Shown here: positions 19,927-42,638 of the stretch, in pieces
Layout of the letters: each line of letters opens with the position of its first letter
Position numbering within the stretch: position 1 is the stretch's first letter
Source: a virus
Strand: one strand, 5' to 3'
Length of the DNA stretch: 64,000 bases
Virus record (IMG/VR): IMGVR_UViG_3300045988_106231
Location: 70,775-134,774 of that record
Made by a program: the position numbers and the translations under genes
Notes under the pieces: model-generated
Told to the model about the DNA's origin: nothing
Databases searched by the model: none
What the model saw: only the letters and a program-made list of their open reading frames with translations

Positions 19927-19955
19927 TTGACTTCTGTAAAGGTATCCTGTATAAT
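19927..19955 (+). promoter_or_regulatory. consensus sigma70 promoter TTGACT-N17-TATAAT embedded in a 21-bp conserved motif (reverse orientation)
   Basis: TTGACT 19927-19932, TATAAT 19950-19955, 17-nt spacer. Confidence 0.7.
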
Positions 19956-19998
19956 ATAGCTATGGAACGGAGCTACACTATTATAGAGGAGAAAGACT

Positions 19999-20418
19999 AT
20001 GGACAACAATATTGACCCAAAGGTCGGAGAGGTTTGGTTGGTTGATCTATCCAATGCGACAGGTCATCAGCAGCGCGGTATTCGACCGTTCGTTGTGACG
20101 AGTAACAATAAGCGCAACTTCTTCAGTCCCACAATCAAAGGGAATCCGTTGTCTTCCAGAACATACAAGCGTTCTCCGGTTCATGTCCTGCTCTCAAAGG
20201 AAGATTGCGATTTCCTAGAGGTTGACAGTATCGTTCTCTGTGAAGAGACTGACACACTTAACAAAGGGCAGTTTATCAAAAAGCTTGGTGTCTTGTCTGA
20301 GCGTCATATGAATATGATCGCAATGGCCAGATGCAAGGATGAACCGTTTTTGATCTCGGCGTTCGTGAGCGGCGTACAACATACTATGGAATTTCAGAAT
20401 TTTGCCGCATTTGCTTGA
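19999..20418 (+). CDS. MazF/PemK-family endoribonuclease toxin
   Basis: N-terminus GEVWLVDLSNATGHQQRGIRPFVVTSNN matches the MazF/PemK signature (GE/DIW.VDL.P..G.EQ.G.RP.LVVS); 139 aa; AGGAGAAAG RBS. Confidence 0.75.
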   Translation: MDNNIDPKVGEVWLVDLSNATGHQQRGIRPFVVTSNNKRNFFSPTIKGNPLSSRTYKRSPVHVLLSKEDCDFLEVDSIVLCEETDTLNKGQFIKKLGVLSERHMNMIAMARCKDEPFLISAFVSGVQHTMEFQNFAAFA

Positions 20419-20471
20419 TTTTTTATAAGGGTTAATGGTACACTACATATAATAAGAAGGAGTGTGCCATT

Positions 20472-21398
20472 ATGCTTACTGAAGAAAAGATCAACGCTTT
20501 TGCTGAAAAGTATTCTGATAGAAGCGGCGAGTTTGTTATATCGACACTTAACCATGTTATGGACTACGAAGCGGAGTGCGGGTATGAGCTATTCGACTTC
20601 ACAAAAGATGATTTTGTAAAGATGTTTGCCAAATACAATTGGGTAAACTCAAGTCGTTCATTCAGAAATGTGAAATCGATAATCACTGGTTATATCAAGA
20701 ACGAAAATCGTACAAGCATGTATGATTTGGCTGAATTCTCAGAGAGCGATGTGAGTTCAGACAATATGTACGAGGACAAGTATTTTGCATCGGTTGATGA
20801 GTTTGTTGGTTTCTTAAACAAGTATGAAGAAGCGTATCAGATTCGTATGAATGTGATTGCTGTTTTGTACTGGATCGGTCTTACTTCTAGTGAGGTTTCT
20901 AATCTAACAATTAACGATGTAGACTTTGAATCTCGTACTGTCCTCGATAGGACTGATGTTGACGCAAGGTTGATGGATATCATCAAGCAGTGTTATGAAA
21001 TGAAACAGTATGATGCGCCCAATATGGGAGGATACAGAACATTTTATGTCATAAATGGTGATTACATTCTTCGTAAAACAGAGGATAGAACTGGTGTAGA
21101 CAGCGACCCGAAGATGTCTGTAAATACAATCCATAGTTATTTTGTGAGGCTGAATGACATTCTCGAAAAAAGACATCATACAAAGATTTTAGATCGAAGA
21201 CATCTGACCAGAAATGGTGAGTATGTGAAGGTCTACGATTACTGTAAGAGTAATTCAGAGTTCAACCTTGCGGAGCTTAGTTTCGGAAATGGTAAAAAAC
21301 CTCTTGCAGACATTATTGGAAGAAAGTGTAGCAAGGTAGCTTACATTAGTTTCCGGCAGGGATACAAGGGCTGGGTCGAATACTTCCACAAAAATTAA
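20472..21398 (+). CDS. hypothetical protein, possibly degenerate tyrosine-recombinase-like
   Basis: Segment AVLYWIGLTSSEVSNLTINDVDFESRTV resembles the integrase Arg-I region but with Thr in place of Arg; no clear HxxR/Y motifs. Confidence 0.4.
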   Translation: MLTEEKINAFAEKYSDRSGEFVISTLNHVMDYEAECGYELFDFTKDDFVKMFAKYNWVNSSRSFRNVKSIITGYIKNENRTSMYDLAEFSESDVSSDNMYEDKYFASVDEFVGFLNKYEEAYQIRMNVIAVLYWIGLTSSEVSNLTINDVDFESRTVLDRTDVDARLMDIIKQCYEMKQYDAPNMGGYRTFYVINGDYILRKTEDRTGVDSDPKMSVNTIHSYFVRLNDILEKRHHTKILDRRHLTRNGEYVKVYDYCKSNSEFNLAELSFGNGKKPLADIIGRKCSKVAYISFRQGYKGWVEYFHKN

Positions 21399-21403
21399 AA
21401 ACA

Positions 21404-21426
21404 GGGGGCTTCGGCCCCTTGATTTT
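21404..21426 (+). terminator. rho-independent terminator
   Basis: GGGGGC-TTCG-GCCCC hairpin followed by TTGATTTT. Confidence 0.7.
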
Positions 21427-21532
21427 AACATCATAACTATATGACACAGGATACTAAACTAAAATAGACATTTTATGAAGAATTGGAAATGAATAAATAA
21501 CGATAATGCGTTAGATAAAAGGAGCAAAAACA

Positions 21533-23605
21533 ATGTCTGATTTCAAGAAATTTCGCGCACTGCTGCAGGACCACTTCAATGAGATGGTGAAGGTCGAGAA
21601 TCCACTGTTTATCACCGATGCAGACGAGGATGAACTGTATAATCTGTATCTCGACAGCTTCCCGGTCGGCACGAATGAATTGTTTCGTAAGCGGCGCGAG
21701 TATGACTGTTCCTGCTGCCGCCGTTTTGTGAAGAATATCGGCAAGCTGGTAGCGTTTGATGCGGGTCGTAATCTGGTTTCTATTTGGGATTTTGATGCTA
21801 AGTCTGCCAAGTATCAGCCTGTTGTGGACGCTCTGGCTACTTACGTGAAGAGTCGCGCCATTGTGAATCCGTACTTTATCAGCCGCAATATGATCGGTTC
21901 TGGCAATATGTTCGGCACCGAGATGAACTACGAGTACGATGAAAACAACAAGGATGTGCATACTTGGGATCATTTCGCAGTCAAGATTCCGCAGCATTTT
22001 ATTACCAGTGGAGATGATGTGGCTACCAAGATGGCTCAGTGGCGTGATTCCGCAAATGTATACAAGCGTTCTCTGGAAGAGCTAACCATGGAGGCCGTTG
22101 ATACTGTGCTGGAGCTGATTGCACAGAATAGTCTGTATCGCGGTAAGGAATTTGAAAACGCCGTCAAGGTATTCAAGACTAACAAGATTGAATACAATAA
22201 TACTCCGGCTGAGAACAAGGCCGCTTATGTTTGGCTGGCCCCGGCGTGGAGCGATATGGGACAGCTTCGTATCCGTAACACCGCTATCGGTACTTTGCTG
22301 GTAAATCTGAGTGAGGGTATGAACGTGGATGCAGCCGTTACTGCCTTCGAGAAAGTTGTTGCTCCCGCAAACTATAAGCGTCCAAAAGCAATTTTCACTA
22401 AGAAGATGCTGGAGGATGCACAGAAAACCGTCACTGAGCTGGGTTATATGAATAGTCTGGGTCGTCGGTTTGCTACTCTGGACGATATCACCGCAAACAA
22501 TATCCTGTTCTGCAACCGTGATGCCGCTCCTCGTATTGCTGGTGCTACAAATCCGTTTGAGGCAATGGCTAAGACTGTTACGATTGATCCCAAGAAGTTT
22601 GGCCGTGCAGAGGAAATTGGTATTGACAAGTTTATCAAAGACGTGTTGCCGACTGCGACCGGCCTAGAACTGTTCATGGAGAATCGTTTCGAGAAGAATA
22701 TGATGTCCCTGATTGCTCCGCAGGATAAGGCTGCGCCAAGCATGTTCAAGTGGCCCAATGGTTTCAGTTGGGCGTATACAGGCAACACGACTGACAGCCA
22801 GATCCGTGAGAACGTCAAGAATGCTGGCGGCAAAGTCGATGGCGTGCTGCGTTTCTCTATCCAGTGGAACGATAAGCAGTGCGAGTGGGATGAAAATGAC
22901 CTTGATGCCCACTGTGTTGAACCGAACGACTTTGAGATCTATTTTGGCAACAAACGAGATTGGAGTACTGGTGGCGATCTGGATGTAGATATTATTCATC
23001 CTGATCGTGATGAGGCCGCTGTTGAGAATATTACATGGCCTGATATCAAAAAGATGAAGGATGGCAAATACGAGTTCTTTGTTCATTGCTTCTCTAACCG
23101 TGGCGGCAAAACTGGTTTCCGCGCAGAGATTGAATTTGATGGTCAAATTTACTCCTTCAATTATAATATTCCGCTGCGTCAGACTCAGAATGTTTCTGTT
23201 GCTACTGTTGTGTTGAAGGATGGGCAGTTTACTATTAAGGAACATCTCAATAGTTCTACTTCTTCCCGTGAAATCTGGGGTGTGAATTCCAATCAGTTTG
23301 TGCCGGTGTCCGTAGCTATGTATTCTCCGAACTACTGGGATGAGCAGACTGGTAATGGCAACCGTCACTACTTTTTCATGCTCAAGGATTGTGTCAACCC
23401 TGAAAAACCCAACGGATTCTATAATGAATTCCTGAAGGTGGAGTTACTGCAGCACAAGAGAGTGTTCGAGGCTCTTGGCTCTCAGATGGCGGTTCAATCG
23501 GTGGATGACCAGCTGTCTGGTGTTGGCTTCTCTGAGACGAAGCACGACCTCTTCATTGTCAAGGTTCAGGGAGCTACTGAGCGAGTTCTGAAAGTTGTTA
23601 TTTGA
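21533..23605 (+). CDS. large hypothetical protein (690 aa)
   Basis: Long ORF with AAAAGGAG RBS; CSCC cluster near N-terminus; no family recognised by eye. Confidence 0.7.
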   Translation: MSDFKKFRALLQDHFNEMVKVENPLFITDADEDELYNLYLDSFPVGTNELFRKRREYDCSCCRRFVKNIGKLVAFDAGRNLVSIWDFDAKSAKYQPVVDALATYVKSRAIVNPYFISRNMIGSGNMFGTEMNYEYDENNKDVHTWDHFAVKIPQHFITSGDDVATKMAQWRDSANVYKRSLEELTMEAVDTVLELIAQNSLYRGKEFENAVKVFKTNKIEYNNTPAENKAAYVWLAPAWSDMGQLRIRNTAIGTLLVNLSEGMNVDAAVTAFEKVVAPANYKRPKAIFTKKMLEDAQKTVTELGYMNSLGRRFATLDDITANNILFCNRDAAPRIAGATNPFEAMAKTVTIDPKKFGRAEEIGIDKFIKDVLPTATGLELFMENRFEKNMMSLIAPQDKAAPSMFKWPNGFSWAYTGNTTDSQIRENVKNAGGKVDGVLRFSIQWNDKQCEWDENDLDAHCVEPNDFEIYFGNKRDWSTGGDLDVDIIHPDRDEAAVENITWPDIKKMKDGKYEFFVHCFSNRGGKTGFRAEIEFDGQIYSFNYNIPLRQTQNVSVATVVLKDGQFTIKEHLNSSTSSREIWGVNSNQFVPVSVAMYSPNYWDEQTGNGNRHYFFMLKDCVNPEKPNGFYNEFLKVELLQHKRVFEALGSQMAVQSVDDQLSGVGFSETKHDLFIVKVQGATERVLKVVI

Positions 23606-23621
23606 AAAGGAGAGAATGAAT

Positions 23622-24005
23622 ATGGAAAAGAATCTATTTGAAATCGCAACTCGTAACCGTTATCGTTTTACCTACAAGGGTGTCATGACCGTGGAAGACC
23701 TGTGGGATCTGAGCGTCGAGGCGTTGGATGCAATTTTTAAGACTTTGAACCGTCAAAAGAAGACTGCCGACGAAGATTCTCTGCTGACCACTAAGAGCGC
23801 CGCCGATACTGAGTTGGCTAATAAAATCGAGCTGGTCAAATATATTGTGTCTATTAAGTTGGCTGAGGCCGATGAGCGAGTGAATGCCGCCGAGAAGAAG
23901 GCACAGCGCGATAAGATTCTGGCTATCATGGCTAAGAAACAGGATGCCGCCCTTGAGGGTATGGATATGAAGCAGTTGGAAGCAGAGCTTGCAAAACTGT
24001 CCTAA
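23622..24005 (+). CDS. hypothetical alpha-helical protein
   Basis: ATG 23622 is 7 nt after AAAGGAGAG. Confidence 0.55.
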   Translation: MEKNLFEIATRNRYRFTYKGVMTVEDLWDLSVEALDAIFKTLNRQKKTADEDSLLTTKSAADTELANKIELVKYIVSIKLAEADERVNAAEKKAQRDKILAIMAKKQDAALEGMDMKQLEAELAKLS

Positions 24006-24071
24006 CTAAGATATTTTCTTCCTCCGAAAATGCCCTGCGCGGGGCTGACAGCCGGGAAAGACCGGCGATAT

Positions 24072-24156
24072 GGGGATATGGTGAAATTGGCAGCCACGCT
24101 TGATTCAAACTCAAGTGTCAAAAGACGTGTCGGTTCAAATCCGACTATCCCTACCA
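24072..24156 (+). tRNA. tRNA-Leu(CAA), type II, CCA encoded
   Basis: Manual fold: acceptor GGGGATA/TATCCCT, anticodon arm CTTGA-TTCAAAC-TCAAG, long variable arm, T-arm GTCGG-TTCAAAT-CCGAC. Confidence 0.7.
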
Positions 24157-24353
24157 TGAAAATCAGTTGTTTCAGCTAGATCGGGGATTGGCCGTTCATT
24201 GGCAAACGACAGGTATCATACCGGTAAAGGATACCGAGCCAAATAGGAAGGGAAATAAGGTGCAAGCCGAGTAGCTGTCGGACGAATACTCTTCAGGTAG
24301 CCAGTAAACTGGAACGTAAAACGAATGTTGGCTGTTTCTGATTTTCTTTACAA

Positions 24354-24437
24354 GCCACTGTGGTGAAATTGGCAGACACGAGGGACTTAAAATCCCTTTC
24401 TGGCAACAGAGTACGGGTCCAAATCCCGTCGGTGGCA
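24354..24437 (+). tRNA. tRNA-Leu(TAA), type II, no CCA
   Basis: Acceptor GCCACTG/CGGTGGC, anticodon arm AGGGA-CTTAAAA-TCCCT, long variable arm, T-loop TTCAAAT. Confidence 0.7.
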
Positions 24438-24444
24438 TTTATAT

Positions 24445-24520
24445 CCGGGTGTAGCTCAGTTGGAAGAGCGCGTGTTTTGGGAACATGAGGCCGCAGGATC
24501 ATGACCTGTCACTCGGACCA
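24445..24520 (+). tRNA. tRNA-Pro(TGG), CCA encoded
   Basis: Acceptor CCGGGTG/CACTCGG, D-arm GCTC..GAGC, anticodon arm CGTGT-TTTGGGA-ACATG; T-loop ATCATGA is non-canonical (A54, U58). Confidence 0.55.
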
Positions 24521-24525
24521 TATAA

Positions 24526-24599
24526 TGCGTCGTAGCCAAGCGGTTAAGGCAGGGTCCTTTGAAGTCCCGATTGCGAGAGTTCGATTCTCTCCGGCGCAA
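24526..24599 (+). tRNA. tRNA-Gln(TTG), no CCA
   Basis: U1:A72 first pair as in bacterial tRNA-Gln; anticodon loop CTTTGAA; T-arm GAGAG-TTCGATT-CTCTC. Confidence 0.6.
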
Positions 24600-24604
24600 T
24601 TTAT

Positions 24605-24690
24605 GCGGGTATGGTGAAATTGGCGAGACACGAATGCTTTAGGGACATTTGCCGAAAGGTATACCAGTTCGAATCTGGTTACCCGCACCA
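24605..24690 (+). tRNA. tRNA-Leu(TAG), type II, CCA encoded
   Basis: Acceptor GCGGGTA/TACCCGC; anticodon arm AATGC-TTTAGGG-ACATT with a C31·A39 mismatch; long variable arm; T-loop TTCGAAT. Confidence 0.55.
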
Positions 24691-24793
24691 CGGTCATAGA
24701 ATGGTTGCGTACCGTTTATTGATCTCCTTTGACCACTATTATTCCCAGCTTACTCGTAAGAGTGCAGTAGTACTTTGTAAGTTGGGTTCTTAT

Positions 24794-24869
24794 GCGACTG
24801 TAGTTCAATTGGCAGAGCGTCAGATTTCCAATCTGAATGTTGCGGGATCATACCCCGTCAGTCGCTCCA
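24794..24869 (+). tRNA. tRNA-Gly(TCC), CCA encoded
   Basis: Acceptor GCGACTG/CAGTCGC, anticodon arm TCAGA-TTTCCAA-TCTGA, discriminator U; T-loop ATCATAC is non-canonical. Confidence 0.6.
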
Positions 24870-25000
24870 CGCGCAGCCCCTTACGCTGCACCGGTTACTC
24901 AGAGCCGAAAGGAACCTATATGTTACGACATGGTTGCCAAGAGTGATCATATTGGAACGCGACGTAGCTTGGATAGTAAGAATTAAATTCTGAGGTATAC

Positions 25001-25067
25001 GGCTGGATAGCTTAATGGTAAAAGCGCTCGGAAACACCGAGAGATAAGGTTCGATTCCTTCACTGGC
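25001..25067 (+). ncRNA. degenerate tRNA-like element (pseudo-tRNA?)
   Basis: Canonical D-arm (GCT-TAATGGTAAA-AGC) and T-arm (AAGG-TTCGATT-CCTT), but no pairable acceptor stem and an aberrant anticodon hairpin CTCGG-AAACA-CCGAG. Confidence 0.35.
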
Positions 25068-25096
25068 ATCGCGCCGATGAAAGTCGGCGTTTGCAT

Positions 25097-25188
25097 GGGA
25101 CGTTAGCTTAGTTGGTTAAAGCTCCTGGCTCATAACCGGGTGATGAGGATAACACCTCACAGGGGTTCGAGTCCCTTACGTCCCACCA
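25097..25188 (+). tRNA. atypical tRNA, anticodon CAT, 20-nt variable arm (92 nt, CCA encoded)
   Basis: Acceptor GGGACGT/ACGTCCC, D-arm GCTT-AGTTGGTTA-AAGC, anticodon arm CCTGG-CTCATAA-CCGGG, variable arm with TGAGG/CCTCA stem, T-arm AGGGG-TTCGAGT-CCCTT. Confidence 0.55.
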
Positions 25189-25385
25189 GCCCGATAGGGC
25201 ATACATAAAATCTGCTAGAACTTTTGTTTTATAAGCGAATGAATAATATGACGTTAATACGTCTATTATTTTTCGCTCATTTTTAAAGTTTTAGCTATAT
25301 TACACAGGATACTAAAGGGGGAGTTGTAATCTTACGAGTTTTAATTGCCTGTGAGGAATCACAGGAAGTTTGTAAAGCATTTCGA

Positions 25386-26018
25386 TTGCTTGGTCATGAA
25401 GCGTATTCTTGTGATATTCAACCTCCGTCCGGTGGTCACCCAGAGTGGCATATTTTGGGTAATGCACTGGCAGCTTTACAGGGTGGGCAGATAGTCACAA
25501 TGGACGGCACACAACACTATGTTAAGCAGTGGGATCTATTGATTGCACATCCTCCGTGTACATATTTATCAAACGCTGGCGCACGATGGTTGTGGGCTGG
25601 GCACAAATTGAATCAAGAACGGTATCAACAGGGATTAGAAGCTAAGGAATTCTTTATGGCGTTTTACAACGCACCGATCAAACACATTTGTGTTGAGAAT
25701 CCAATTCCGAGTGCTGTTTATGAAATGCCAAAACCATCGCAGATGATTCAGCCATATGAATTTTATGGTAAGGACCATCCATGGACAAAGAAGACCTGTT
25801 TATGGCTGAAAGGTCTTCCTAATCTGGTTCCGGTTGAAGCGGTTGAACCGAAGGGTCCGTATTGCCCTTGTGGAACTTCGGCCAATAAAGGCAATGTAAG
25901 AAATCGTGGCGCAGCTAAACGTGGTGAGGATGCAAAGAATAGAGCTAAGACCTTCCATGGGATTGCTCGTGCTATCGCAGAACAATTTTCAGAGTACATT
26001 GAAAATGAGGTGAATTGA
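25386..26018 (+). CDS. C5-cytosine-methyltransferase-like protein with degenerate motif I; start unclear (in-frame extension to 25317 with no ATG/GTG/TTG)
   Basis: AHPPCTYLSNAG matches C5-MTase motif IV (PCQ.FS.AG) with catalytic Cys; ICVENP matches motif VI (ENV). The upstream in-frame sequence LRVLIACEESQEVCKAFRLLGHEAYS aligns to the motif I region but lacks the FxGxGG glycines. GGGGGAG RBS at 25317-25323. No target-recognition domain; only ~230 aa. Confidence 0.5.
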   Translation: MLGHEAYSCDIQPPSGGHPEWHILGNALAALQGGQIVTMDGTQHYVKQWDLLIAHPPCTYLSNAGARWLWAGHKLNQERYQQGLEAKEFFMAFYNAPIKHICVENPIPSAVYEMPKPSQMIQPYEFYGKDHPWTKKTCLWLKGLPNLVPVEAVEPKGPYCPCGTSANKGNVRNRGAAKRGEDAKNRAKTFHGIARAIAEQFSEYIENEVN

Positions 26019-26560
26019 TGCCAGAAAACAAAGGATATCTTACAGCTGACCGATCTGTATCAGGTGATGAGCGATATACACCGGTTTATGCGGTTGTTCC
26101 ACTGCTTGAGTTCACCCCCCCGTCGAGTAAAGCTGTGATTTGGTGTCCGTTTGATAAAGAATGGTCTTCCTTTGTGAAGGTATTCAGAGATGCTGGGTAC
26201 AAGGTAGAATGTAGCCACATTGATAACGGGCAAGATTTCTTTACATATGAACCAGAGCGTTGGGATGTTATGATTTCAAATCCTCCTTTTAGTAGGAAGG
26301 ATGAAGTATTGCGTAGAGCCTATGAGCTTGAAAAGCCGTTTGCTCTACTACTTCCTGCAAATAGTATTCAGGGTAAGACACGATTTGACATCTTCAAAAA
26401 TGATGTACAGATGCTGTGTTTTGATTCTCGAATCGGATTTATGGACCCTGAACATACTGACAGCCCTGTTGAGGGAGTGTCGTTTGGAAGTGCGTACTTC
26501 TGTAGAAATTTTCTTCCAAGTAAGTTAGAGTTACGGAAACTCGATAAAAAAATCTCATAA
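26018..26560 (+). CDS. N6-adenine DNA methyltransferase, phage Dam-like
   Basis: YTPVYAVVPLL followed by ISNPPFS (motif IV NPPF/DPPY); 4-nt overlap with upstream MTase-like gene. Confidence 0.6.
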   Translation: MPENKGYLTADRSVSGDERYTPVYAVVPLLEFTPPSSKAVIWCPFDKEWSSFVKVFRDAGYKVECSHIDNGQDFFTYEPERWDVMISNPPFSRKDEVLRRAYELEKPFALLLPANSIQGKTRFDIFKNDVQMLCFDSRIGFMDPEHTDSPVEGVSFGSAYFCRNFLPSKLELRKLDKKIS

Positions 26561-26588
26561 AAGGCTAATTCAAATAATAGGTGACCTA

Positions 26589-26795
26589 ATGAACAGCAAA
26601 ATTCCTATCAATGTAACTATCGACCACGGTTCCTTGAGCCTTCCGGCAAGTCCTATCTTTCAGAAGGAGAAGAACACGTATCTCTGTCCGTTTTGTGTGA
26701 CGAAGCTGGAAAAGTTCGAGTGTGAATGTTCTGATTGTCATCGCAAGATGGATTGGAGCAGGTTTACTGAAAAGAAGGAGGAGATGTTTAGTTGA
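26589..26795 (+). CDS. zinc-ribbon small protein
   Basis: CPFC...CECSDCHRK Cys pairs. Confidence 0.5.
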   Translation: MNSKIPINVTIDHGSLSLPASPIFQKEKNTYLCPFCVTKLEKFECECSDCHRKMDWSRFTEKKEEMFS

Positions 26796-27070
26796 ATATA
26801 GATTTCTTCCAACGGCGCAAGACACAGCTTGAAGATACGCTTCTTTTGAAAAATCAGGCAGTCGATATGCTTGATTACCTAAAGACGCACTGCATCAACA
26901 ACGACCAGTATTGCGCCATTCGAGATTACATTGAAGAAGCTGCGAAGATTCTGGAGAGTGACCTCGAATATGCAAACAACAAGCTACAGTCCGCATTCAG
27001 ACCTAAGTATGGCCGGAATAATAGACTGACTCGTGCTCAATCTAAGATGTTCCGTGATAGAGAATATTAA
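26792..27070 (+). CDS. hypothetical protein (TTG start)
   Basis: AAGGAGGAG 8 nt before TTG 26792. Confidence 0.5.
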   Translation: MNIDFFQRRKTQLEDTLLLKNQAVDMLDYLKTHCINNDQYCAIRDYIEEAAKILESDLEYANNKLQSAFRPKYGRNNRLTRAQSKMFRDREY

Positions 27071-27087
27071 AAATGGGGTGATGCCGT

Positions 27088-27300
27088 ATGAACACATGTA
27101 AGAAAATATGTAACTGGTGTGGTCGTGAAATCAAGTCGATAGGTAGCGAGCAGGGAATCAGTTTTGAGCATCAATACTCTTATGGTAGCCAGCTTGATGG
27201 TTCGTTTTTGAGTTTTGATTTGTGTCCTGAGTGTTCAGAACTGCTCCCAATAGTGCTCGGCGCAATGTTTGTACATAATCCCTTAAAGGACGATTTCTAA
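27088..27300 (+). CDS. zinc-ribbon small protein (CNWCG...CPECS)
   Basis: Two CxxC pairs; 70 aa. Confidence 0.5.
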   Translation: MNTCKKICNWCGREIKSIGSEQGISFEHQYSYGSQLDGSFLSFDLCPECSELLPIVLGAMFVHNPLKDDF

Positions 27301-27445: not shown

Positions 27446-28549
27446 ATGGCAGATAGAATTTTTAATCTTCCTCAGACCCGTGGTTCTTTTGAGATGGCTG
27501 GTAAGGTCACAGGCACCCAGCGTAGCAACTTCTATAACGAGAAGGAGACCAAGAGTGGTGCTATGCGCCGTGTTCTGAGCTTTGGCGTTCAGACTTCCAA
27601 CGAAAATACTTTCTATGTTGATCTGGCTGGTATGCCTCGTGATAAGGTTTACTTCTTCCGCCGTGCCGATAAGGACAAGGGCATCGAGAAGGATAAGAAG
27701 GAAGTCGCGTGGAAGGATCGTCTGACTTATGTTGCACCGGAAGGCTATGATATGATTGGCGTTAAGGTCGGTGTTACCAAGAAGACAAATGAGTCTGGTA
27801 AGGTCGTCAATGATAACAAGACTCTGACCGACTTCGATGCAACCAAGGAGATTTCTGAGAACCTGCACGACGGCGATAACGTGTATGTTCGTGGTAACAT
27901 CGAGTACAGCACTTACAATGGTAAGCACCAGATTCGCTTTGTTCCTACTCAGGTGTCGCTGAGTTCTAAGGAAATCGACTTCGATGCAGAGGGTTTTGAG
28001 GAACTGGCTCTGTTCACTCAGACCATTGTGTACACTGGTTGCCGCAAGAGCGATGAGGATGATGAAGTAGTTGTTGATGCCAAGATTGTGAACTACAACA
28101 CCATCGAAGATGCCGAGTTCTTTATTGACTATAAGGCAAACGCTCAGAATAAGGTTCTGGCAGACTCTATTCGTAAGCGTCTGAAGTCTTATACCAGTTT
28201 TGAGTGCTTTGGTCCTATCGTTAATCAGCAGAAGGTTGAGGAAGTTGAGACCGAGAATATCTGGGGTGGTCCCAACAAGATGAAGCGCCAGAGCACTCCG
28301 GCGGTTCGCAAGCTGTATATTGAGGGTGTTAATCCTGACTCCTTTGATCCGAACCCCGGCGAGAAGGATGCAGAGCCCACTTACACTGAGGACAATATCT
28401 CCGAGGCACGGGCAAAGATTGCTGCCAATGCTCAGGCAAAGAAGGACTTCGACGGTAAGGCCGCTGAGAACGACACTTCTTGGTGGGGTGATTCTAACAA
28501 GTCTACTGCAACTCCTGTAAACGAGGAAGAAGATGACTGGGGACTGTAA
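27446..28549 (+). CDS. putative ssDNA-binding/annealing protein (acidic C-terminal tail)
   Basis: 367 aa; AAAGGAGA RBS; ends in acidic ...NEEEDDWGL tail reminiscent of SSB C-termini; located just upstream of the Sak4-like ATPase. Confidence 0.35.
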   Translation: MADRIFNLPQTRGSFEMAGKVTGTQRSNFYNEKETKSGAMRRVLSFGVQTSNENTFYVDLAGMPRDKVYFFRRADKDKGIEKDKKEVAWKDRLTYVAPEGYDMIGVKVGVTKKTNESGKVVNDNKTLTDFDATKEISENLHDGDNVYVRGNIEYSTYNGKHQIRFVPTQVSLSSKEIDFDAEGFEELALFTQTIVYTGCRKSDEDDEVVVDAKIVNYNTIEDAEFFIDYKANAQNKVLADSIRKRLKSYTSFECFGPIVNQQKVEEVETENIWGGPNKMKRQSTPAVRKLYIEGVNPDSFDPNPGEKDAEPTYTEDNISEARAKIAANAQAKKDFDGKAAENDTSWWGDSNKSTATPVNEEEDDWGL

Positions 28550-28594
28550 TTTTTAGTCTTAGCTAAGTAATACAGGATACAGAGAGGGCTAGTT

Positions 28595-28888: not shown

Positions 28889-28921
28889 TAAAAGAAAAGA
28901 TTTAGAGAGGAATTTACATAT

Positions 28922-35060: not shown

Positions 35061-35061
35061 T

Positions 35062-35403: not shown

Positions 35404-35701
35404 TGTGAATAACTACGATTTGTCGTTAAATCTATTAGATGGCGCATATAAATCACTTGCAAACGCTTCAAAAAACTTGGAGCTACTTCGGGAAGGAACC
35501 GCATTTAATCAGGTTCTGAACGATACTACACATATTATTGAACCGGATGAGCTAATTCATATTCTTGATAAATTCGCAGAGCAGCATCCTGACTGGGAAA
35601 TCTGTCTTAAAACTGACCATGGAACGGTTAGTGAAAAACTCAAAATGAATCATAATTTCTACGAAGGAATGGGTAATATGATTGTCCTTGATTTTGAATG
35701 A
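35396..35701 (+). CDS. hypothetical protein
   Basis: ATG 35396 is 10 nt after GGAGGG. Confidence 0.45.
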   Translation: MTNVNNYDLSLNLLDGAYKSLANASKNLELLREGTAFNQVLNDTTHIIEPDELIHILDKFAEQHPDWEICLKTDHGTVSEKLKMNHNFYEGMGNMIVLDFE

Positions 35702-35952
35702 AGATGACAAAACGACGATATAGACATTACATAATCGATTATCGTACATACAATTACACACTCAAGAAATATCACTACTTACACAGGGAAATCTACGCTG
35801 AAAATGCAAGAGATGCAGTTAAAATGCTAAGAAGCAAGGAATGCAATCGTGAATTTGAGATTGTTAAAGTCTGGTTTGTTGATATTTTTGGTGATAGAAA
35901 TGATAGATTTTATCCACGAACTTATGTGATTGACAAAGAGGATTATGAGTGA
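35698..35952 (+). CDS. hypothetical basic protein
   Basis: Overlapping stop/start ATGA. Confidence 0.45.
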   Translation: MKMTKRRYRHYIIDYRTYNYTLKKYHYLHREIYAENARDAVKMLRSKECNREFEIVKVWFVDIFGDRNDRFYPRTYVIDKEDYE

Positions 35953-35958
35953 GGTGGC

Positions 35959-36144
35959 TTGATGACTACTTGCGAACAACTTGAAACAGCAATTCGTGAT
36001 TTTATTGAAGAATGCCAGAGTCATCCGGTGCCGGATTTGTCAAAAGATGACCCGTGTGAAGGGTGTCGCTTTGAGGATTTTTGCAATAGATTCTATCCGG
36101 GTGATGGTAGCACATGGCATTGGCAAGTTTATGAGAAGGGGTGA
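35959..36144 (+). CDS. hypothetical Cys-containing protein
   Basis: GAGGTGG RBS, 61 aa. Confidence 0.45.
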   Translation: MMTTCEQLETAIRDFIEECQSHPVPDLSKDDPCEGCRFEDFCNRFYPGDGSTWHWQVYEKG

Positions 36145-36148
36145 GTGT

Positions 36149-36904
36149 ATGGTTTACATTACAGGTGATATTCATGGCGAATTTTACCGTTTTTTTAAAT
36201 TAGAGAAATTCTGCCATAAACATAATCTTGGAAAGAATGACTGGATCATTTGCCTTGGCGATGTCGGTTTGAACTACTACGGCAAAGACGACCCTCGTGA
36301 ATGGAGTATTAAGACTATTGCCGCAGATATCCCTGCGAATCTGTTTTGTATTCATGGAAATCATGAACGCCGCCCATCTCGTAAAAATGGCTATAAAATA
36401 AAGGAAATCAGTGGAGATATTTGCGGTAAAGTGTGGTATGACCCACATTATCCTAATCAGTATTTTGCTATTGATGGCGAGGTTTACCAGATTCTTGCTG
36501 ATAGGGAAATTTTAAACTGTCTTGTCTGTGGCGGAGCCTATTCTGTAGATAAATATTATCGGTTGGAGCATGGCTGGAATTGGTGGCCGGATGAACAGCC
36601 GAATGAGAAAACTAAGAAAAAGATCTGGAATATTACGCACGATCCTCAAATTGATGATATTGATGTTATGCTCACGCATACCTGTCCATTCCGGTTCATT
36701 CCAACTGAATTGTTTATCGGTGGTATTGATCAAAGCACAGTAGACCAGTCAACTGAAATATTCTTCGATAATATATACGAATGTTATCCTAACGATCGTA
36801 AACCATTCTGGTACTTCGGCCATTTTCATGGCAACAAGTATACCGATGACTATGTAATGCTTTTTGATGATATTATTAAGTTTGGAGATAAGAGGAAGGA
36901 GTAA
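36149..36904 (+). CDS. calcineurin-like metallophosphoesterase
   Basis: GDIHG, GDVG and GNHE motifs in order; ATG 36149 after GAAGGGGTGAG. Confidence 0.7.
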   Translation: MVYITGDIHGEFYRFFKLEKFCHKHNLGKNDWIICLGDVGLNYYGKDDPREWSIKTIAADIPANLFCIHGNHERRPSRKNGYKIKEISGDICGKVWYDPHYPNQYFAIDGEVYQILADREILNCLVCGGAYSVDKYYRLEHGWNWWPDEQPNEKTKKKIWNITHDPQIDDIDVMLTHTCPFRFIPTELFIGGIDQSTVDQSTEIFFDNIYECYPNDRKPFWYFGHFHGNKYTDDYVMLFDDIIKFGDKRKE

Positions 36905-36906
36905 GA

Positions 36907-39900
36907 ATGTCAAGTAGTTTACACACGCACTCGAATTACAGTCTGCTAGATGGGTACTCTTCTCCTGAAGAAAATCTAAAAAGAGCATCTGAACTCGGTT
37001 TAAAGGCCATTGCTATTACGGAGCATGGTGAGGTAACAAGCTGGCCGTATTACTCAGAACTGAAAGACAAGTATCCGAATGTAAAACTTCTTTATGGTAT
37101 TGAGGCATATGAGTGTGAAGACAGGGCAGTTAAGGATAAGAACAGTAAATACTGGCACCTGATTATTATCGCAAAGAATGAGGCTGGCCGTCAGGCTGTT
37201 AATCGCTTGTCTACACTCGGTCATCTTCATGGTTTTTATAGCCGTCCTCGTATCACAAAAGAGGATATCGCTAAGGAAGATACGAATAATTTGATTATCC
37301 TGTCTGCTTGTTTAGCAAGTAGGCTGTCCAGAACAGATGATTATAACGCTTGTATTAAGCTGGTTCAAGAGTATAAGAGCTTATTTCCTCACTATTATCT
37401 TGAAGTTCAGGCTCATGCAAACAGTGAACAGGCAAAATACAATCAAAAAATCATGCGGCTAGCAAATGACACTCACACAAAAGTGGTTGTCACAAACGAT
37501 GTTCACGCTGCCACCAAAGAAGATCTTTATTATCAGGACTATTTTCTTCGTATCGCTCACGACACGGAAACCGCCGCAGAAATCTATGAAGGGTGCTACT
37601 TCATGTCTCGTGAGGAACAACATAGAATTCTTGATGGTCAGATTGGATATGAAGCGACAGAATGGTGTATCAATAATACTGACGAGGTTGCTGACCTGTG
37701 TGATGATGTAGATATGCCTTGGCATGAACCGGAACTTCCCAAAATTAAGATTCCGCCACAGTATTCTAATTCGGCAACTTACCTGAAAGACCTTGTAAAA
37801 GAGGGATGGAAGAAACGTGGAATTGATAAGTTTGATGTAGAAAAGCAGAAAATCTATCGCAAACGTGTTGATGATGAGTTGTTTGTCATCGAGAAAAAAG
37901 ACTTCTGTGACTACTTTTTGATTCTGGTCGATTACATCAACTGGTGTAAGCAAAACGATGTTATTGTTGGCCCAGGGCGAGGCTCTGCTGCCGGTTCACT
38001 CGTGTGCTATCTGATTGGTATTACGCAGCTCGATTCCATCAAGTATGAGCTTGATTTCGGACGGTTCCTTACTATTGAACGAAAAGACCTTCCTGACGTT
38101 GACGTAGATGTTAGCGACCGTGCGAAAGTTGTTGAGTATTTGACTCAGAAGTATGGAGAAGATCGAGTAGTTCAAGTTATGAACATCGTGTACACTACTC
38201 CGGTCACTTCGATTCAAGACGTTGGTAAGGTGTTGGGATTCCCGTATGCTGAGATTAGAAAAATCAGTGAGAAGTTTGTTCAAAAGACATGGAAAGATTG
38301 TCTTGAGGCAAACCCAGAAGTGGCTGAAAATCCGAAGTATCAGGAATTACTTGACATCGCAAGTCATATCAATGGTCGTCCACGAGGATATGGCATCCAT
38401 GCTGGCGGTGTTATTGTCTGCCGACATCCTTATTATGAGTATATCGGCATTCGGCACGGCACTGACGGAGAACATGTTATCTCTGTTGATAAAGTGATGG
38501 ACGAGAAAATCGGACTCGTCAAGTTTGATATTCTTGGTGTTGCGTCACTGGTTGCCATTGATGAAGCAAAACGTGAGGACAACATTCCAGAATGGGAAAT
38601 TGATATCAACAATCCAGAGTTTGAAAACGATAAGGCAACTTACGATTTGATTTGTTCCGGGCGGACAGACAATCTATTCCAGATTGAGTCTTCGGGAATG
38701 AAGGATCTGGTCGCACAGCTTCAGCCGAGGTCAATTGAGGGACTATCAGCTTTGATTGCACTTTATCGTCCTGATGCGATGCCGTCCATTCCTACATACG
38801 TTGATTGCAAGTACCACCCTGAACACATTCACTACTTCCATCCTGACATGGAACCAATTTTTCGCAGCACCTATGGTGTGAATATCTATCAGGAACAAAG
38901 TATGAAGCTCACGAAGGTCTTTGGCGGTCGAAACGATGCCGGAGCTGATAGAATGCGTAAATGCTTGGCAAAGAAAAAGCCTGAGAAAGTCAAGGAAGAG
39001 GTTGAGCTTCTTTACGATGAGATTCTTGCAAACGGATACGATGAAGCAACCGCCGAACATATTTGCGATGAACTGTCAACGAAGGGCGGCTACGGATTTA
39101 ACAAGTCACATTCTCAGGCGTATGCCGTTATCTGCCTTCAAACAGCATACTTAAAAACACACCATCCGCTTGCGTTCTTTAAGGCTATGCTAAACCTGAA
39201 TAAAGCAAAGGTTGGTAAGGTAAACAAGATTATGGTAGATGCACGGAGTTTTGGTGTTCAGGTTCTTCCTCCGAGTATCAATCGTTCCGGCATGGATTTT
39301 ACTGTATCGAATGGGAAAATTCTATTTGGTCTATCCGCAATCGGTGGCATTGGTGATACGCTTGCCGATGCTATTATTGCCGAAAGAGATAAGAATGGAA
39401 AGTTCAAGGGTCTTGATGACTTTACGAGCCGTGTCCGTGCAACAAAGGCACAGATCATCGCACTGGTTAAGTCTGGTGCCATTCCTACAAAGAATAAACG
39501 AGCGTTTTTGGAAAAGTACATTGCGAGTGGTTTGGAGCAATCTGAGTTCAAACCGGTAAGCACACTTCCTACAAAAGCTGTCCTGCTGAGTAAGTGGGAT
39601 ATTGATACGGAGCATTATAGGGTTGGTAAGAAGGTTGATAAAGAAACTGTCCTACGAATCTATAACGAAAAACGTCGTGTTGTATATGAGACTGAAAAGC
39701 TCAAGAAAAAAGAAACATACATGACTGAGCAATCAGAGAAGTATTTGAGGGACGAGCAATTCTGGGAATTCCAGACATTACAGACATTCATCATCGATAA
39801 GAATCCGTTTGAAAAAGCATATGAGTACATTCGAGATTTCTCAGAGCTTGAGAATGGTGACTCTTGTGTGCTGGTTGGTATTATCGCAAAGATTCAGAAG

Positions 39901-40122
39901 AAGAAAACAAAGACTGGTATGCAGTTTGCGTTTGTAAATCTGTACTCTGGTGATGGTATCATTGAGCTAACTGTGTGGCCGAGAATCCTTTCTGATTATC
40001 AGGATTTGATTGTTAAGGGAAGTCAGGTAGCTGTGCTTGGTAAGAAGGAAGATGATTCGCACGTTATTGCGAATGACTTCAAGCCTTACAAGCAATGGCT
40101 GCATGATAGAGAGATAAGGTAA
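36907..40122 (+). CDS. dnaE: DNA polymerase III alpha subunit, DnaE-type
   Basis: PHP domain N-terminus HTHSNYSLLDGYSSPEE...AITEHG; 1071 aa; internal GGVIVCRHP-type palm-region motifs consistent with the Pol III alpha architecture. Confidence 0.85.
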   Translation: MSSSLHTHSNYSLLDGYSSPEENLKRASELGLKAIAITEHGEVTSWPYYSELKDKYPNVKLLYGIEAYECEDRAVKDKNSKYWHLIIIAKNEAGRQAVNRLSTLGHLHGFYSRPRITKEDIAKEDTNNLIILSACLASRLSRTDDYNACIKLVQEYKSLFPHYYLEVQAHANSEQAKYNQKIMRLANDTHTKVVVTNDVHAATKEDLYYQDYFLRIAHDTETAAEIYEGCYFMSREEQHRILDGQIGYEATEWCINNTDEVADLCDDVDMPWHEPELPKIKIPPQYSNSATYLKDLVKEGWKKRGIDKFDVEKQKIYRKRVDDELFVIEKKDFCDYFLILVDYINWCKQNDVIVGPGRGSAAGSLVCYLIGITQLDSIKYELDFGRFLTIERKDLPDVDVDVSDRAKVVEYLTQKYGEDRVVQVMNIVYTTPVTSIQDVGKVLGFPYAEIRKISEKFVQKTWKDCLEANPEVAENPKYQELLDIASHINGRPRGYGIHAGGVIVCRHPYYEYIGIRHGTDGEHVISVDKVMDEKIGLVKFDILGVASLVAIDEAKREDNIPEWEIDINNPEFENDKATYDLICSGRTDNLFQIESSGMKDLVAQLQPRSIEGLSALIALYRPDAMPSIPTYVDCKYHPEHIHYFHPDMEPIFRSTYGVNIYQEQSMKLTKVFGGRNDAGADRMRKCLAKKKPEKVKEEVELLYDEILANGYDEATAEHICDELSTKGGYGFNKSHSQAYAVICLQTAYLKTHHPLAFFKAMLNLNKAKVGKVNKIMVDARSFGVQVLPPSINRSGMDFTVSNGKILFGLSAIGGIGDTLADAIIAERDKNGKFKGLDDFTSRVRATKAQIIALVKSGAIPTKNKRAFLEKYIASGLEQSEFKPVSTLPTKAVLLSKWDIDTEHYRVGKKVDKETVLRIYNEKRRVVYETEKLKKKETYMTEQSEKYLRDEQFWEFQTLQTFIIDKNPFEKAYEYIRDFSELENGDSCVLVGIIAKIQKKKTKTGMQFAFVNLYSGDGIIELTVWPRILSDYQDLIVKGSQVAVLGKKEDDSHVIANDFKPYKQWLHDREIR

Positions 40123-40134
40123 GGGGGTTGTAAG

Positions 40135-42465
40135 GTGGCAGATAAGAAATTTAATGAAAATATGATCCGTTGTTACATCAGGATAAAACGAGTCTTTTAT
40201 CCGAAAGATTGGAAGGAGGTGGAGCCCGGCGGCTTCGCCACTTTCTCTGCCGAAGTGGTAAAAATCAAGCAGGGAAACCCTATCATGAGCCGATATAGTG
40301 ACCTCCGACTGAAAGGCAACGTCCCTAGTCTTGATATGGATAAGACTTATTCGTTCTGTGGCGAGTATGTTCACCATGAAAAGTTTGGTGACCAGTATAA
40401 AATCGTCTACATGAATGAGTTTCAAGAGATTACTGACCCAGAAGAACAGAAAAGCTTTCTCCATTTTATCTTAACAGAACATCAGTTTGAGATGCTTTAT
40501 GAAGCATTTGACAATCCGTATGAGATCATCAAGAACGGTGATATCAAGTCTCTTTGCACTGTTAGTGGCATCACGGAAGGTCGAGCACAGAAAATTATCG
40601 ATGCCTTTGAAAATAATATTGATAATAGCGAAGCATACACGAAGCTGATTGAGTATGGTTTGACTCCCAGTGCAATCGGGAAACTTGTTCATCAATATCA
40701 CGGTGCAGACACTCTGGTTAGGAAGATTGAAGAGAACCCTTATGTTCTGATTGACGATGTATATGGTATTGGATGGAAGAAAGCTGACGCTCTTGCATTG
40801 AATATGGGATTGAAGCCAAACTCTCAGTTCCGAATTGAAGCTTACGTCATGCATTTTCTTGCCGACCGTGCCGAAGAAGGCAATTCTATCATCCCGGCAA
40901 ACCAGACAATAAATAGTTGCATTAAGGAACTTGGCTTGGATGAGGGTGACCAAGAGGTTATCAAGAGAGCACTTTTCCATCTGCACGATGTCCGTGAAAC
41001 GCTTTGGTGGAGTGATGATCGTCAAGAATTTGCTTTGACCAGAGTGTGGAATCTGGAAAATGAGATTGCAAAGGAAATTAAGCGTCTGGCGGATGCACCT
41101 GTTGAGCCGATTGGTCGAAACATGGACGCTGCAATCGATGAGGCGGAACGTGCTCTTGGCATCGAGTACACCGAGGGGCAGAGAGATGCTATTAAAAAGG
41201 TATGCTCTAGTAATGTCTGTATCTTGACAGGCTACGGAGGAACCGGTAAAAGTACCGTTGTCGCTGGTGTCCTAAAGGTTCTTCGTGGTAAGTCGTTTGC
41301 CCAGACTGCACTCTCTGGTCGTGCTGCTGCTCGTATGCAGGAGATTACTGGTCAGGACGGCAAGACAATTCACCGCCTCCTTGGTTACGACATTGAAAAT
41401 GGTGGCTTTATTCATAATAAGAACAATCCTTTAGAGGAGGATATCATCATTCTGGATGAAACCTCTATGGTTGGCGCTAAATTATTTTACGATTTGATTC
41501 AAGCAATCGAAACTGGTAAGCGATTTATCATGATTGGTGATGACGGACAGCTTGAGAGTATCGGTATGTGCAACATCTTCAAGGATATGCTTGCATCTAA
41601 GGTTGTTCCTGTTGCTCGTTTGACTAAGATCCATCGTCAGGCAGCTAAGTCTGCAATTATCACGGAAAGCATTAAGGTTCGTAATGCTACGCAGTTGGTT
41701 CCTTATGGCTGGGCTGGCAATGAGATTCGTGGTGAACTTCGTGACTTGGAGCTTGATATCTATAAGGATGCAAATGAGTCGTTCAACCACATCATCAATC
41801 AGTACCGTACCTTATATAATAAGGTAGGGAATGATAGTGCGAAGATTCAGATTGTACTTCCGCAGAAGCTCCGTGGTAGCATCTGCACCTACGAGGTGAA
41901 TAACGCTATTCAGGAGATTGTGAATCCAAATCGTGGTCAGACCGAAGCGAAGATTTCCGTCTATGGTGATGGAAAGGACAGAGTGTACACTCTGCGCGAG
42001 GGCGATCAGGTCATTATCAACAAGAATAACTATGAACTTCATACATACAATCTCAAGACAAAGAAAAAAGAAGAGAAGTGTCCGGTGTTTAACGGCAACC
42101 GTGGCATCATTCGAAAGATTGAAAGCAGTTTTATTCTGGTTGATTTTGACCAGTGGGGAACGATCTTCATTCCACATTACTTTGGTGGGAATAACATCTG
42201 GGCAACGCTTGAACTTGCTTATGCTTTAAGTTGTCATAAACTGCAGGGCAGTGAGGCTCCGTATGTGATTGTTGGTATGGATAACTCTGCGTACTTGATG
42301 TTGACGAGAGAATGGCTCTATACGGCCATCACTCGTGCTAAGAAGTATTGTGTGATTTGTGCTGAAACTCATGCTCTTGATCGGGCGGTAAAGACTTCGA
42401 GAGTTCCATATAAGCGGACGTTCCTGAAGGAATTTTTACGGAAAGAATTTTCAGAAAAGCATTGA
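40135..42465 (+). CDS. RecD-like SF1 DNA helicase (GTG start)
   Basis: Walker A TGYGGTGKST, Walker B IIILDETSM; HhH-type region GIGWKKADALAL; C-terminal SF1 motif ACLMLTREWLYTAITRAK. Confidence 0.75.
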   Translation: MADKKFNENMIRCYIRIKRVFYPKDWKEVEPGGFATFSAEVVKIKQGNPIMSRYSDLRLKGNVPSLDMDKTYSFCGEYVHHEKFGDQYKIVYMNEFQEITDPEEQKSFLHFILTEHQFEMLYEAFDNPYEIIKNGDIKSLCTVSGITEGRAQKIIDAFENNIDNSEAYTKLIEYGLTPSAIGKLVHQYHGADTLVRKIEENPYVLIDDVYGIGWKKADALALNMGLKPNSQFRIEAYVMHFLADRAEEGNSIIPANQTINSCIKELGLDEGDQEVIKRALFHLHDVRETLWWSDDRQEFALTRVWNLENEIAKEIKRLADAPVEPIGRNMDAAIDEAERALGIEYTEGQRDAIKKVCSSNVCILTGYGGTGKSTVVAGVLKVLRGKSFAQTALSGRAAARMQEITGQDGKTIHRLLGYDIENGGFIHNKNNPLEEDIIILDETSMVGAKLFYDLIQAIETGKRFIMIGDDGQLESIGMCNIFKDMLASKVVPVARLTKIHRQAAKSAIITESIKVRNATQLVPYGWAGNEIRGELRDLELDIYKDANESFNHIINQYRTLYNKVGNDSAKIQIVLPQKLRGSICTYEVNNAIQEIVNPNRGQTEAKISVYGDGKDRVYTLREGDQVIINKNNYELHTYNLKTKKKEEKCPVFNGNRGIIRKIESSFILVDFDQWGTIFIPHYFGGNNIWATLELAYALSCHKLQGSEAPYVIVGMDNSAYLMLTREWLYTAITRAKKYCVICAETHALDRAVKTSRVPYKRTFLKEFLRKEFSEKH

Positions 42466-42490
42466 CAATTATATAAGCATCCTGTATAAT
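42462..42490 (+). promoter_or_regulatory. consensus sigma70 promoter TTGACA-N17-TATAAT
   Basis: TTGACA 42462-42467, TATAAT 42485-42490; -10 lies inside a copy of the 21-bp motif. Confidence 0.7.
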
Positions 42491-42557
42491 ATAGCTATAA
42501 AAAGTCTCCATCTCGGAGGCTTAAAAATCTCTCTTTAGCTATATAATACAGGATACG

Positions 42558-42596
42558 AGAAAGAAATGGCTTGCTCGTAATGGCAAGCCTTTCTTT
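42558..42596 (+). other. long imperfect hairpin (terminator/attenuator-like) in the ligase leader
   Basis: GAAAGAAATGGCTTGC-TCGTAAT-GGCAAGCCTTTCTTT, 15-bp stem with one bulge, followed by a T-rich tract. Confidence 0.55.
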
Positions 42597-42638
42597 ATTG
42601 GTTGTAACTACACAACACAGGATGCATGAGGAGGCTTT

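Follow-up and report, generated by a model that had tools for sequence, protein, structure and literature searches.

A conserved 21-bp intergenic repeat in a large SPbeta-type phage and its probable association with an integrase-fold repressor

Integrase-fold master repressors that act through long, scattered, monomer-bound boxes were described between 2023 and 2025, so far only in the SPbeta-like arbitrium phages of Bacillus. MrpR binds the repeated element SPBRE at 10 promoter regions (PMC10516654), and SroF of phage phi3T clamps a 26-bp asymmetric box as a monomer, reading 24 bp of it, with sites distributed genome-wide (bioRxiv 10.1101/2025.11.27.690993). Here we describe a 21-bp element that is repeated in a 64,000-nucleotide (nt) stretch of viral DNA (positions 70,775 to 134,774 of IMG/VR record IMGVR_UViG_3300045988_106231; this whole stretch is referred to as the window), together with a gene for a 308-amino-acid (aa) protein that lies beside one of its copies. 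The element is probably the operator box of this protein, a putative master repressor of the SroF/MrpR type, as suggested by sequence, modelling and analogy, and what is new here is most likely another member of a recently described kind of lysogeny switch and not a new kind of element.

For comparison, we derived the SPBRE copies of SPbeta from NC_001884. They are approximately 21 bp long and occupy several kinds of position, being placed 5' of the -35 hexamer (aimR), on both sides of the promoter (yonX), immediately before the ribosome-binding site (RBS; yopM and yopV), or within the spacer of TAGACA-17-TATAAT promoters (yonP, yorE, yorM, yorZ, and yosX).

The element in the window has the sequence TAGCTA-TRYAAY-ACAGGATAC, in which two near-invariant blocks (TAGCTA and ACAGGATAC) enclose a semi-variable TRYAAY segment, and there are seven copies, six strong and one degenerate, in both orientations (Table 1). 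Searching the pattern TAGCTATATWAYACAGGATAC with up to three mismatches gave six matches, each with zero to two mismatches, versus 0.00 expected from 100 dinucleotide-preserving shuffles, and a position weight matrix (PWM) scan added the seventh, degenerate copy (19.9 bits). Four strong copies and the weak one are in the forward orientation and two (copies 1 and 5) are inverted; the long open reading frames (ORFs) of the window are all on the plus strand. All seven copies fall within the 8.5% of the window that is outside the plus-strand ORFs (p ~3e-8 under random placement). The repeated motif is real, non-random and conserved, in keeping with the original prediction of a conserved 21-bp repeat with at least six intergenic copies in both orientations, and the lack of intergenic enrichment that had been named as grounds for giving that prediction up is not what we observe. 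Some of its coordinates need small corrections, in that the copy placed at 28548-28569 lies at 28560-28580 and that the segment placed at 42613-42622, ahead of the ligase gene, lies at 42616-42625; the latter site is real, although what was taken for a partial copy is a weak copy of full length.

Both inverted copies contribute to host-type promoters. As had been predicted, each contains the TATAAT of a sigma70-like promoter whose -35 hexamer (TTGACT at copy 1, TTGACA at copy 5) is 17 nt away, and in both promoters there is a TG one base 5' of the -10 hexamer, giving an extended -10. Copy 1 is 36 nt upstream of the operon containing the mazF-like and repressor genes, such that the repressor's own operon promoter carries a copy of the box. 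This site is kept in six related loci that were recovered through the repressor protein (L003, L004, L006, and L123-125) as well as in 22 distinct viral-contig contexts. Across 22 related contexts the TTGACT hexamer of the operon promoter is invariant and the nine nt between hexamer and box vary, with an entropy of 0.81 bits for these nine spacer bases compared with 0.06 for the box. The TTGACA hexamer of the copy 5 promoter is also kept in relatives.

The forward copies have different surroundings. Copy 2 follows the terminator of the repressor operon, and this arrangement is kept in relatives, in which the box precedes a different gene (RNA ligase/kinase) and lies 15-20 nt from its start codon. 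The sites of copies 3 and 4 are similarly kept; a weak hairpin with a T-run is located at 25250-25273, 5' of copy 3, and the 97-aa gene downstream of copy 4 is the first of the replication module. Copy 7 ends 13 nt before the start codon of the ligase gene, and the equivalent site in relatives is a better match to the motif (TAACTATATAACACAGGATAC). A search for a -35 element 16-18 nt from the central hexamer of the forward copies found none, and revealed only a T-rich bias at -14 and -8 that corresponds to terminator tails.

Related loci were collected in two ways. The six loci fetched with the repressor protein, to which their repressors are 75-88% identical, are unbiased by the motif, and all six carry boxes at the same sites (three to four per locus), also when another gene lies downstream. 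Scanning IMG/VR for the exact pattern then provided more than 100 stretches, mostly on contigs of 80-140 kb, from which 209 distinct contexts were analyzed; the motif is shared by related phages, a check that the original prediction had proposed. Positions 1-6 and 13-21 carry 1.5-2.0 bits of information and positions 0 and 22 no more than 0.36 bits, and conservation across the 209 contexts drops abruptly at the 21-bp borders, with positions 7-12 (TRYAAY) being softer. Since the pattern used for retrieval left no freedom at positions 1-6 and 13-21, these positions are to some extent conserved by construction in the IMG/VR set, and the unbiased evidence is that of the protein-retrieved loci and the sharp borders of the motif.

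The sites in these relatives form several classes. Class A is the repressor-operon promoter; classes B and C consist of a consensus promoter with an inverted box, followed by a small hairpin and then a forward box; and class D, which is absent from this window, is a TTGAAT-17-TATAAT promoter between two boxes, one abutting the -35 hexamer and the other at approximately +3 to +23. The remaining forward boxes are 3-15 nt before an RBS. Inverted pairs (n=55) are always head-to-head with a 38-40-nt gap (59-61 bp centre to centre), tail-to-tail pairs were never seen across the loci, and direct pairs (n=8) have a 48-nt gap, the same spacing as that of copies 6 and 7. The sequence between the head-to-head boxes is unrelated in three site classes, being a promoter in one and two different hairpins in the others.

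The 308-aa protein encoded by the second gene of the operon carries the PHROGs label 'integrase'. Pfam MrpR_N_CB, an N-terminal core-binding domain, matches it with an E value of 2.8e-4, which is under the curated cut-off, and MrpR_C_cat is recorded for its close homologues. Pairwise BLASTP against SPbeta YopR was not significant (best E value 1.8) and a PDB sequence search found only a weak match, to Tn1549 Int, so that it took a family profile and a structure search to reveal homology to YopR. The profile, constructed from the 308-aa protein and distant relatives recovered in an exhaustive phmmer search, matches YopR over residues 1-304 with a score of 57.8 bits (E value 5e-20, for a single comparison), compared with 9.5 bits for YopP, the genuine SPbeta integrase.

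Structure prediction with AlphaFold2 from a shallow alignment of 75-99% identical sequences gave a predicted local distance difference test (pLDDT) score of 60 and an unusable C-terminal half, and a deeper alignment was used instead (pLDDT 89.8). With this model, Foldseek ranks 1-7 in the PDB were occupied by SroF-DNA (9rd5), SroF-Sar (9rgl), YopR (8bpz and 8bj6) and MrpR (8a0a), with E values of 2e-8 to 5e-7, compared with 1.5e-3 or worse for the active recombinases Tn1549 Int, lambda Int, XerA and Cre. The predicted fold is two-domain and tyrosine-recombinase-like, and is nearer to SroF, YopR and MrpR than to active recombinases. Box I reads G-L-T138 in the 308-aa protein versus G-F-R in the true integrase of the window, showing loss of Arg-I; the other catalytic positions are not confidently mappable without structural superposition, and Y298 and W301 are the only residues shared by all 32 family members, with no conserved Arg or His column. 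The profile match, the Foldseek ranking of the model, the threonine in place of Arg-I and the lack of any conserved Arg or His column together identify the 308-aa protein, at the level of sequence and model, as a distant member of the integrase-fold repressor family and not an integrase.

The gene directly 5' of the repressor gene encodes a MazF/PemK-like toxin, and this neighbour is retained even where the repressor is only ~30% identical (L126, 9507-9932; L128, 9506-9922). In the Bacillus phage phi3T the arbitrium switch works via the host MazF, and a mazF-like gene carried by the phage itself within the repressor operon may therefore be linked to the decision between lysis and lysogeny. No antitoxin gene was identified for this toxin.

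That the element is the site of a phage regulator, specifically a repressor, was one branch of the original prediction, and it gains weight from the presence of a YopR/MrpR/SroF-family gene adjoining copy 1 and from the overlap of that box with the promoter of the same operon. By analogy with SroF and MrpR, we infer that the 308-aa protein would bind the box and would repress by binding. Clamping of one asymmetric box by a monomer, as with SroF, would make single copies usable in either orientation. At the inverted copies 1 and 5 a bound repressor would cover the extended -10 and the start site and thereby shut out the host RNA polymerase, which at copy 1 would make the mazF-like/repressor operon self-limiting (autoregulation), and the bracketing boxes of relatives would shut the class D promoters. 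The forward boxes most likely would serve as roadblocks, either close to a promoter or against read-through, and so hold the methyltransferase, replication and ligase modules in a silent state in the lysogen, the clearest candidate being copy 2, immediately past the repressor-operon terminator.

The comparison with SPBRE (MrpR/YopR/SroF of SPbeta; Lazarevic 1999; Kohm et al. 2023) is close in many respects. Both are asymmetric, A/T-rich intergenic elements of ~20 bp in the early and replication part of a temperate phage of ~130 kb, with about 10 bound sites in SPbeta and seven copies in the window, beyond which the relatives of the window phage hold further site classes. Both are found inside, flanking or after sigma-A promoters, often abutting an RBS, and the two have sites in common at the repressor operon, where the replication module begins (yorE) and just past the DNA polymerase gene (yorM). 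The 21-bp motif is also a long, non-palindromic, many-copy, promoter-proximal intergenic repeat of the SPBRE/Phi3TRE type (~15-26 bp), and the SPbeta repressor and the 308-aa protein have the same integrase-like fold; the best structural match to the 308-aa model is the phi3T SroF-DNA complex 9rd5 (E value 1.8e-8, TM-score 0.60).

There are also clear differences. The SPBRE sequence is unrelated to the motif described here (TAGCTATAYAAYACAGGATAC versus CAAATACAAAWAATATGTATA), and the SPBRE copies that we inspected have one orientation relative to the downstream gene, whereas about one third of the sites here are inverted and use the -10 of the opposite strand. The operon here contains a MazF-like gene where SPbeta has sroA-E. 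Phi3TRE is 26 bp, whereas the present box is 21 bp, is not A-tract-based and consists of two near-invariant outer blocks with a softer centre. A Sar-type antirepressor, a LexA box or an arbitrium module was not identified here, no search having been aimed at them. The lambda operators (OR and OL, bound by CI and Cro) similarly overlap the -10 or -35 hexamers of early promoters, the repressor gene's own promoter region among them, but they are 17-bp near-palindromes bound by dimers and clustered at two loci, whereas the present boxes are asymmetric, stand singly and are spread across more than 20 kb.

Several observations weigh against the operator interpretation. The link between repressor and box rests on homology, adjacency and analogy, and other possible DNA binders in the window (a Bro-N protein and small unannotated proteins) are also possible candidates. 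Most of the related sites were fetched with the motif itself, so that positions 1-6 and 13-21 look more conserved than they would in an unbiased sample, and monomeric binding does not predict the fixed 38-40-nt gap of the inverted pairs. In 156 distinct non-promoter contexts the box follows a hairpin with a T-run in 75 and a sigma-A promoter in 19; many forward copies are without a sigma-A promoter, and a plain operator ill explains the terminator-box-RBS placement. Co-variation of box and repressor is also equivocal. Where the repressor is at least 75% identical the box is present, and where it is 30-37% identical the mazF-like/repressor pair and the order of replication genes are kept with zero copies of the motif, as is expected if box and repressor co-evolve; however, comparing the reverse complement of the upstream region with the downstream region in L126 and L128 gave best matches of 15/21 and 14/21, where the shuffles reached up to 16 and 17, and is inseparable from chance. 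One of the diverged repressors (P0080, 37% identical) was found only on a 1.3-kb contig and not in IMG/VR. In L128, whose repressor is 30% identical, two tandem 22-nt copies of another element (ATAGAAGTATACTAACAATCAT and ATAGAGATATGCTAACAATCAT) are located at 11065-11111 just past the repressor terminator, at the position of copy 2, and represent a candidate lineage-specific box.

The placement of the forward copies invites other explanations. They could be initiation sites of phage-specific transcription, or insulator or roadblock sites at which the integrase-fold protein partitions a 140-kb array of genes on a single strand; we regard this as unlikely, and if it is true then the 38-40-bp head-to-head pairs are a distinct higher-order unit and the known roles of SroF/MrpR-type proteins are extended. 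We consider it distinctly unlikely that the motif is a promoter for phage-specific machinery such as a YonO-like RNA polymerase or a sigma-like factor, an idea also raised in the original prediction, with the reverse copies shutting off overlapping host-type promoters and the forward copies starting transcripts with very short leaders. The 21-bp length and the central A/T-rich segment do recall the promoters of single-subunit (T7-type) polymerases, and many forward copies follow a terminator directly, have no -35 element and are 3-15 nt ahead of an RBS, as is typical of phage-polymerase promoters. Against it stand the use of the motif in both orientations, although all of the window genes are on one strand, and the location of every reverse copy at an ordinary consensus sigma-A promoter with an exact 17-nt spacing. 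Moreover, the class D forward copy is already preceded by a normal sigma-A promoter, the least conserved positions (7-12) coincide with the part of T7-type promoters that has the highest specificity, the window proteins that were scanned included no RNA polymerase or sigma factor, and YonO of SPbeta uses a single late promoter and not many early ones (PMC5467207).

A role in RNA, as a processing or translational-operator site cleaved for example by the phage MazF-like endoribonuclease, appears very unlikely. Its attraction is that forward copies lie between a 3' hairpin and an RBS in the manner of inter-cistronic processing sites, that the MazF-like gene is conserved beside the repressor gene, and that UAC/UACA, which forms the core of several recognition sequences known for MazF, occurs in the motif. 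Known MazF sites are 3-7 nt long, however, and not 21, no structure is predicted for the motif RNA by itself, and the reverse copies, which give complementary RNA or are barely transcribed, nonetheless keep all 21 positions and thus require recognition of double-stranded DNA. It is more improbable still that no dedicated factor is involved and that the motif is a strong host-type promoter core with a symmetric -10, firing either way and copied around the genome. Although its centre does read as a -10 toward the genes, the hexamer being TATAAT or TACAAT in many of the forward copies and, on the opposite strand, TATAAT in the reverse ones, neither of the best-conserved blocks (TAGCTA and ACAGGATAC) is a promoter element, the hexamer is non-functional in many forward copies (TATAAC, CGTGAC, AGTAAC), which also have no -35, and the nine true spacer bases beside the box vary freely whereas GTATCC does not. 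That the copies are iterons of a replication origin, or what is left of a small mobile element, is the least probable of the explanations considered: three copies do lie within 150 bp between the RecD2-like and ligase genes, and head-to-head pairs with fixed spacing recur, but most copies are single, dispersed and each tied to a gene start, and the sequences between paired boxes are unrelated in three pair classes, and it is on these grounds that this explanation fails. There is also zero conservation past 21 bp, from which it follows that the copies are not pieces of a larger mobile element, the other outcome on which the original prediction would have been given up.

Table 1. Copies of the 21-bp box and neighbouring features in the window (numbered from its first nucleotide).
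Feature	Coordinates	Strand	Remarks
-35 hexamer TTGACT, operon promoter	19927..19932	+	Followed after 17 nt by TATAAT 19950-19955, part of box copy 1
Box copy 1	19942..19962	-	Covers 3' half of spacer, extended -10 and start-site region of the mazF-like/repressor operon promoter
MazF/PemK-like toxin gene	19999..20418	+	First gene of operon; Pfam PF02452, E value 4.5e-19
Candidate box-binding protein gene (308 aa)	20472..21398	+	YopR/MrpR/SroF family, integrase fold, from profile and structure matches
Intrinsic terminator ending repressor operon	21403..21427	+	GGGGC-TTCG-GCCCC and T tail; 6 nt before box copy 2
Box copy 2	21434..21454	+	Between repressor terminator and next gene (690 aa)
Box copy 3	25292..25312	+	After tRNA array; 4 nt before GGGGGAG RBS of methyltransferase pair
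Box copy 4	28560..28580	+	10 nt past stop of YorF-like gene; 14 nt before start of 97-aa gene
-35 hexamer TTGACA	42464..42469	+	Overlaps RecD2-like stop codon; 17 nt upstream of TATAAT 42487-42492 inside box copy 5
Box copy 5	42477..42497	-	Overlaps spacer, extended -10 and start site of consensus sigma-A promoter
8-bp hairpin	42502..42522	+	Between box copies 5 and 6; without a T-run on the plus strand
Box copy 6	42536..42556	+	Head-to-head inverted pair with copy 5, 38-nt gap
Strong terminator-like hairpin	42556..42605	+	GAAAGAAAUGGCUUGC...GCAAGCCUUUCUUU and UAUU, between copies 6 and 7
Box copy 7	42605..42625	+	Degenerate, TAACTACACAACACAGGATGC; 3 nt before GAGGAGG RBS of ATP-dependent DNA ligase gene

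The gene content, as judged from sequence comparisons, corresponds to a large, SPbeta-type temperate phage, and the repressor gene is encoded beside early and replication genes, as in the SPbeta-like phages. Replication functions include DNA polymerase III alpha, RecJ, a primase, an AAA_24 protein, a RecD2-like helicase and the ATP-dependent ligase, and the order YorF (recognised via its homologues), AAA_24 (YorG-like), YorH, DnaB helicase, primase, RecJ and DNA polymerase III alpha parallels yorF-yorL of SPbeta. The window also encodes two ordinary tyrosine integrases and the nucleotide-metabolism proteins ThyX, anaerobic ribonucleotide reductase with its activase, and FolD. Contigs of the relatives are 130-150 kb, and some relatives are inside contigs of 200-780 kb, consistent with a prophage state. 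The oxygen-sensitive reductase NrdD suggests a strictly anaerobic host, in agreement with the faecal origin of related contigs, and an anaerobe from the human gut, not Bacillus, is the probable host.

Annotated relatives are scarce. A megablast search of 24.5 kb of the window against INPHARED gave only an 85-bp match and no annotated close relative in that collection, tblastn of the repressor against phages gave no match, and no relatives of the repressor were found among 185,579 representative genomes. MT835544 (L001) encodes the 690-aa protein at 85% aa identity, but this is a mosaic similarity in a genome without the motif and the repressor region, and it is uninformative here. A single cluster of these repressors nonetheless is present on 445 contigs, with public annotation as only 'integrase' or 'hypothetical protein', and we flag this as a mis-annotation in that the proteins of the 'integrase' cluster are predicted not to be integrases. 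The same repressor design is thus indicated in very abundant phages of ~130-150 kb from human gut samples, outside Bacillus. A defined 21-bp box with a candidate repressor offers a handle for predicting the early regulon from sequence alone, and the superinfection-immunity groups of these phages may be predictable from box and repressor sequences.

The spacer between the RecD2-like and ligase genes (42464-42640) is unusually elaborate, containing in succession a promoter, the 8-bp hairpin, box 6, the terminator-like hairpin, box 7 and an RBS. The minimum free energy of the region is -43 kcal/mol (z-score -4.2), a transcript running from the promoter to the second hairpin would be an RNA of ~100 nt, and in the predicted fold CUCUCUUUAG (about 42530-42539) pairs with the ligase RBS.

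The class D region of relatives (L007, 664-743, and ~20 other IMG/VR loci), in which the two boxes are head-to-head, lacks convincing protein genes over the ~300 nt to its left and right, and its flanks may encode small peptides or non-coding RNAs. On its left side a TATAAT is located 5 nt before an ATG, suggesting a leaderless transcript.

The apparent 439-nt intergenic gap 5' of copy 3 is occupied by a tRNA array of seven genes (24072-25188; Leu-CAA, Leu-TAA, Pro-TGG, Gln-TTG, Leu-TAG, Gly-TCC and Met-CAT), and the ORFs listed there are spurious; an eighth, weak Rfam tRNA match is at 25002-25068, and the Rfam scan found nothing but tRNAs. In L003 the place of the 690-aa gene and the tRNA array is taken by a gene for a Cas12f1-like/TnpB protein (429 aa; 12936-14225), between copy 2 and the methyltransferase module. 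Downstream of copy 3, the first methyltransferase ORF (25326-25386 region) is open 5' of the listed TTG start, and its start is most likely an ATC at ~25328, 5 nt past the GGGGGAG RBS, with the translation I-L-R-V-L-I-A-C-E-E... Relatives, L006 among them, retain this ATC; in L006 an ATG close by but out of frame opens a reading frame of just 10 codons ahead of an in-frame TGA. Further downstream, the segments 47151-56658 and 61742-62569 encode ThyX, NrdD with its radical-SAM activase, two SPFH/flotillin-like proteins, and FolD.

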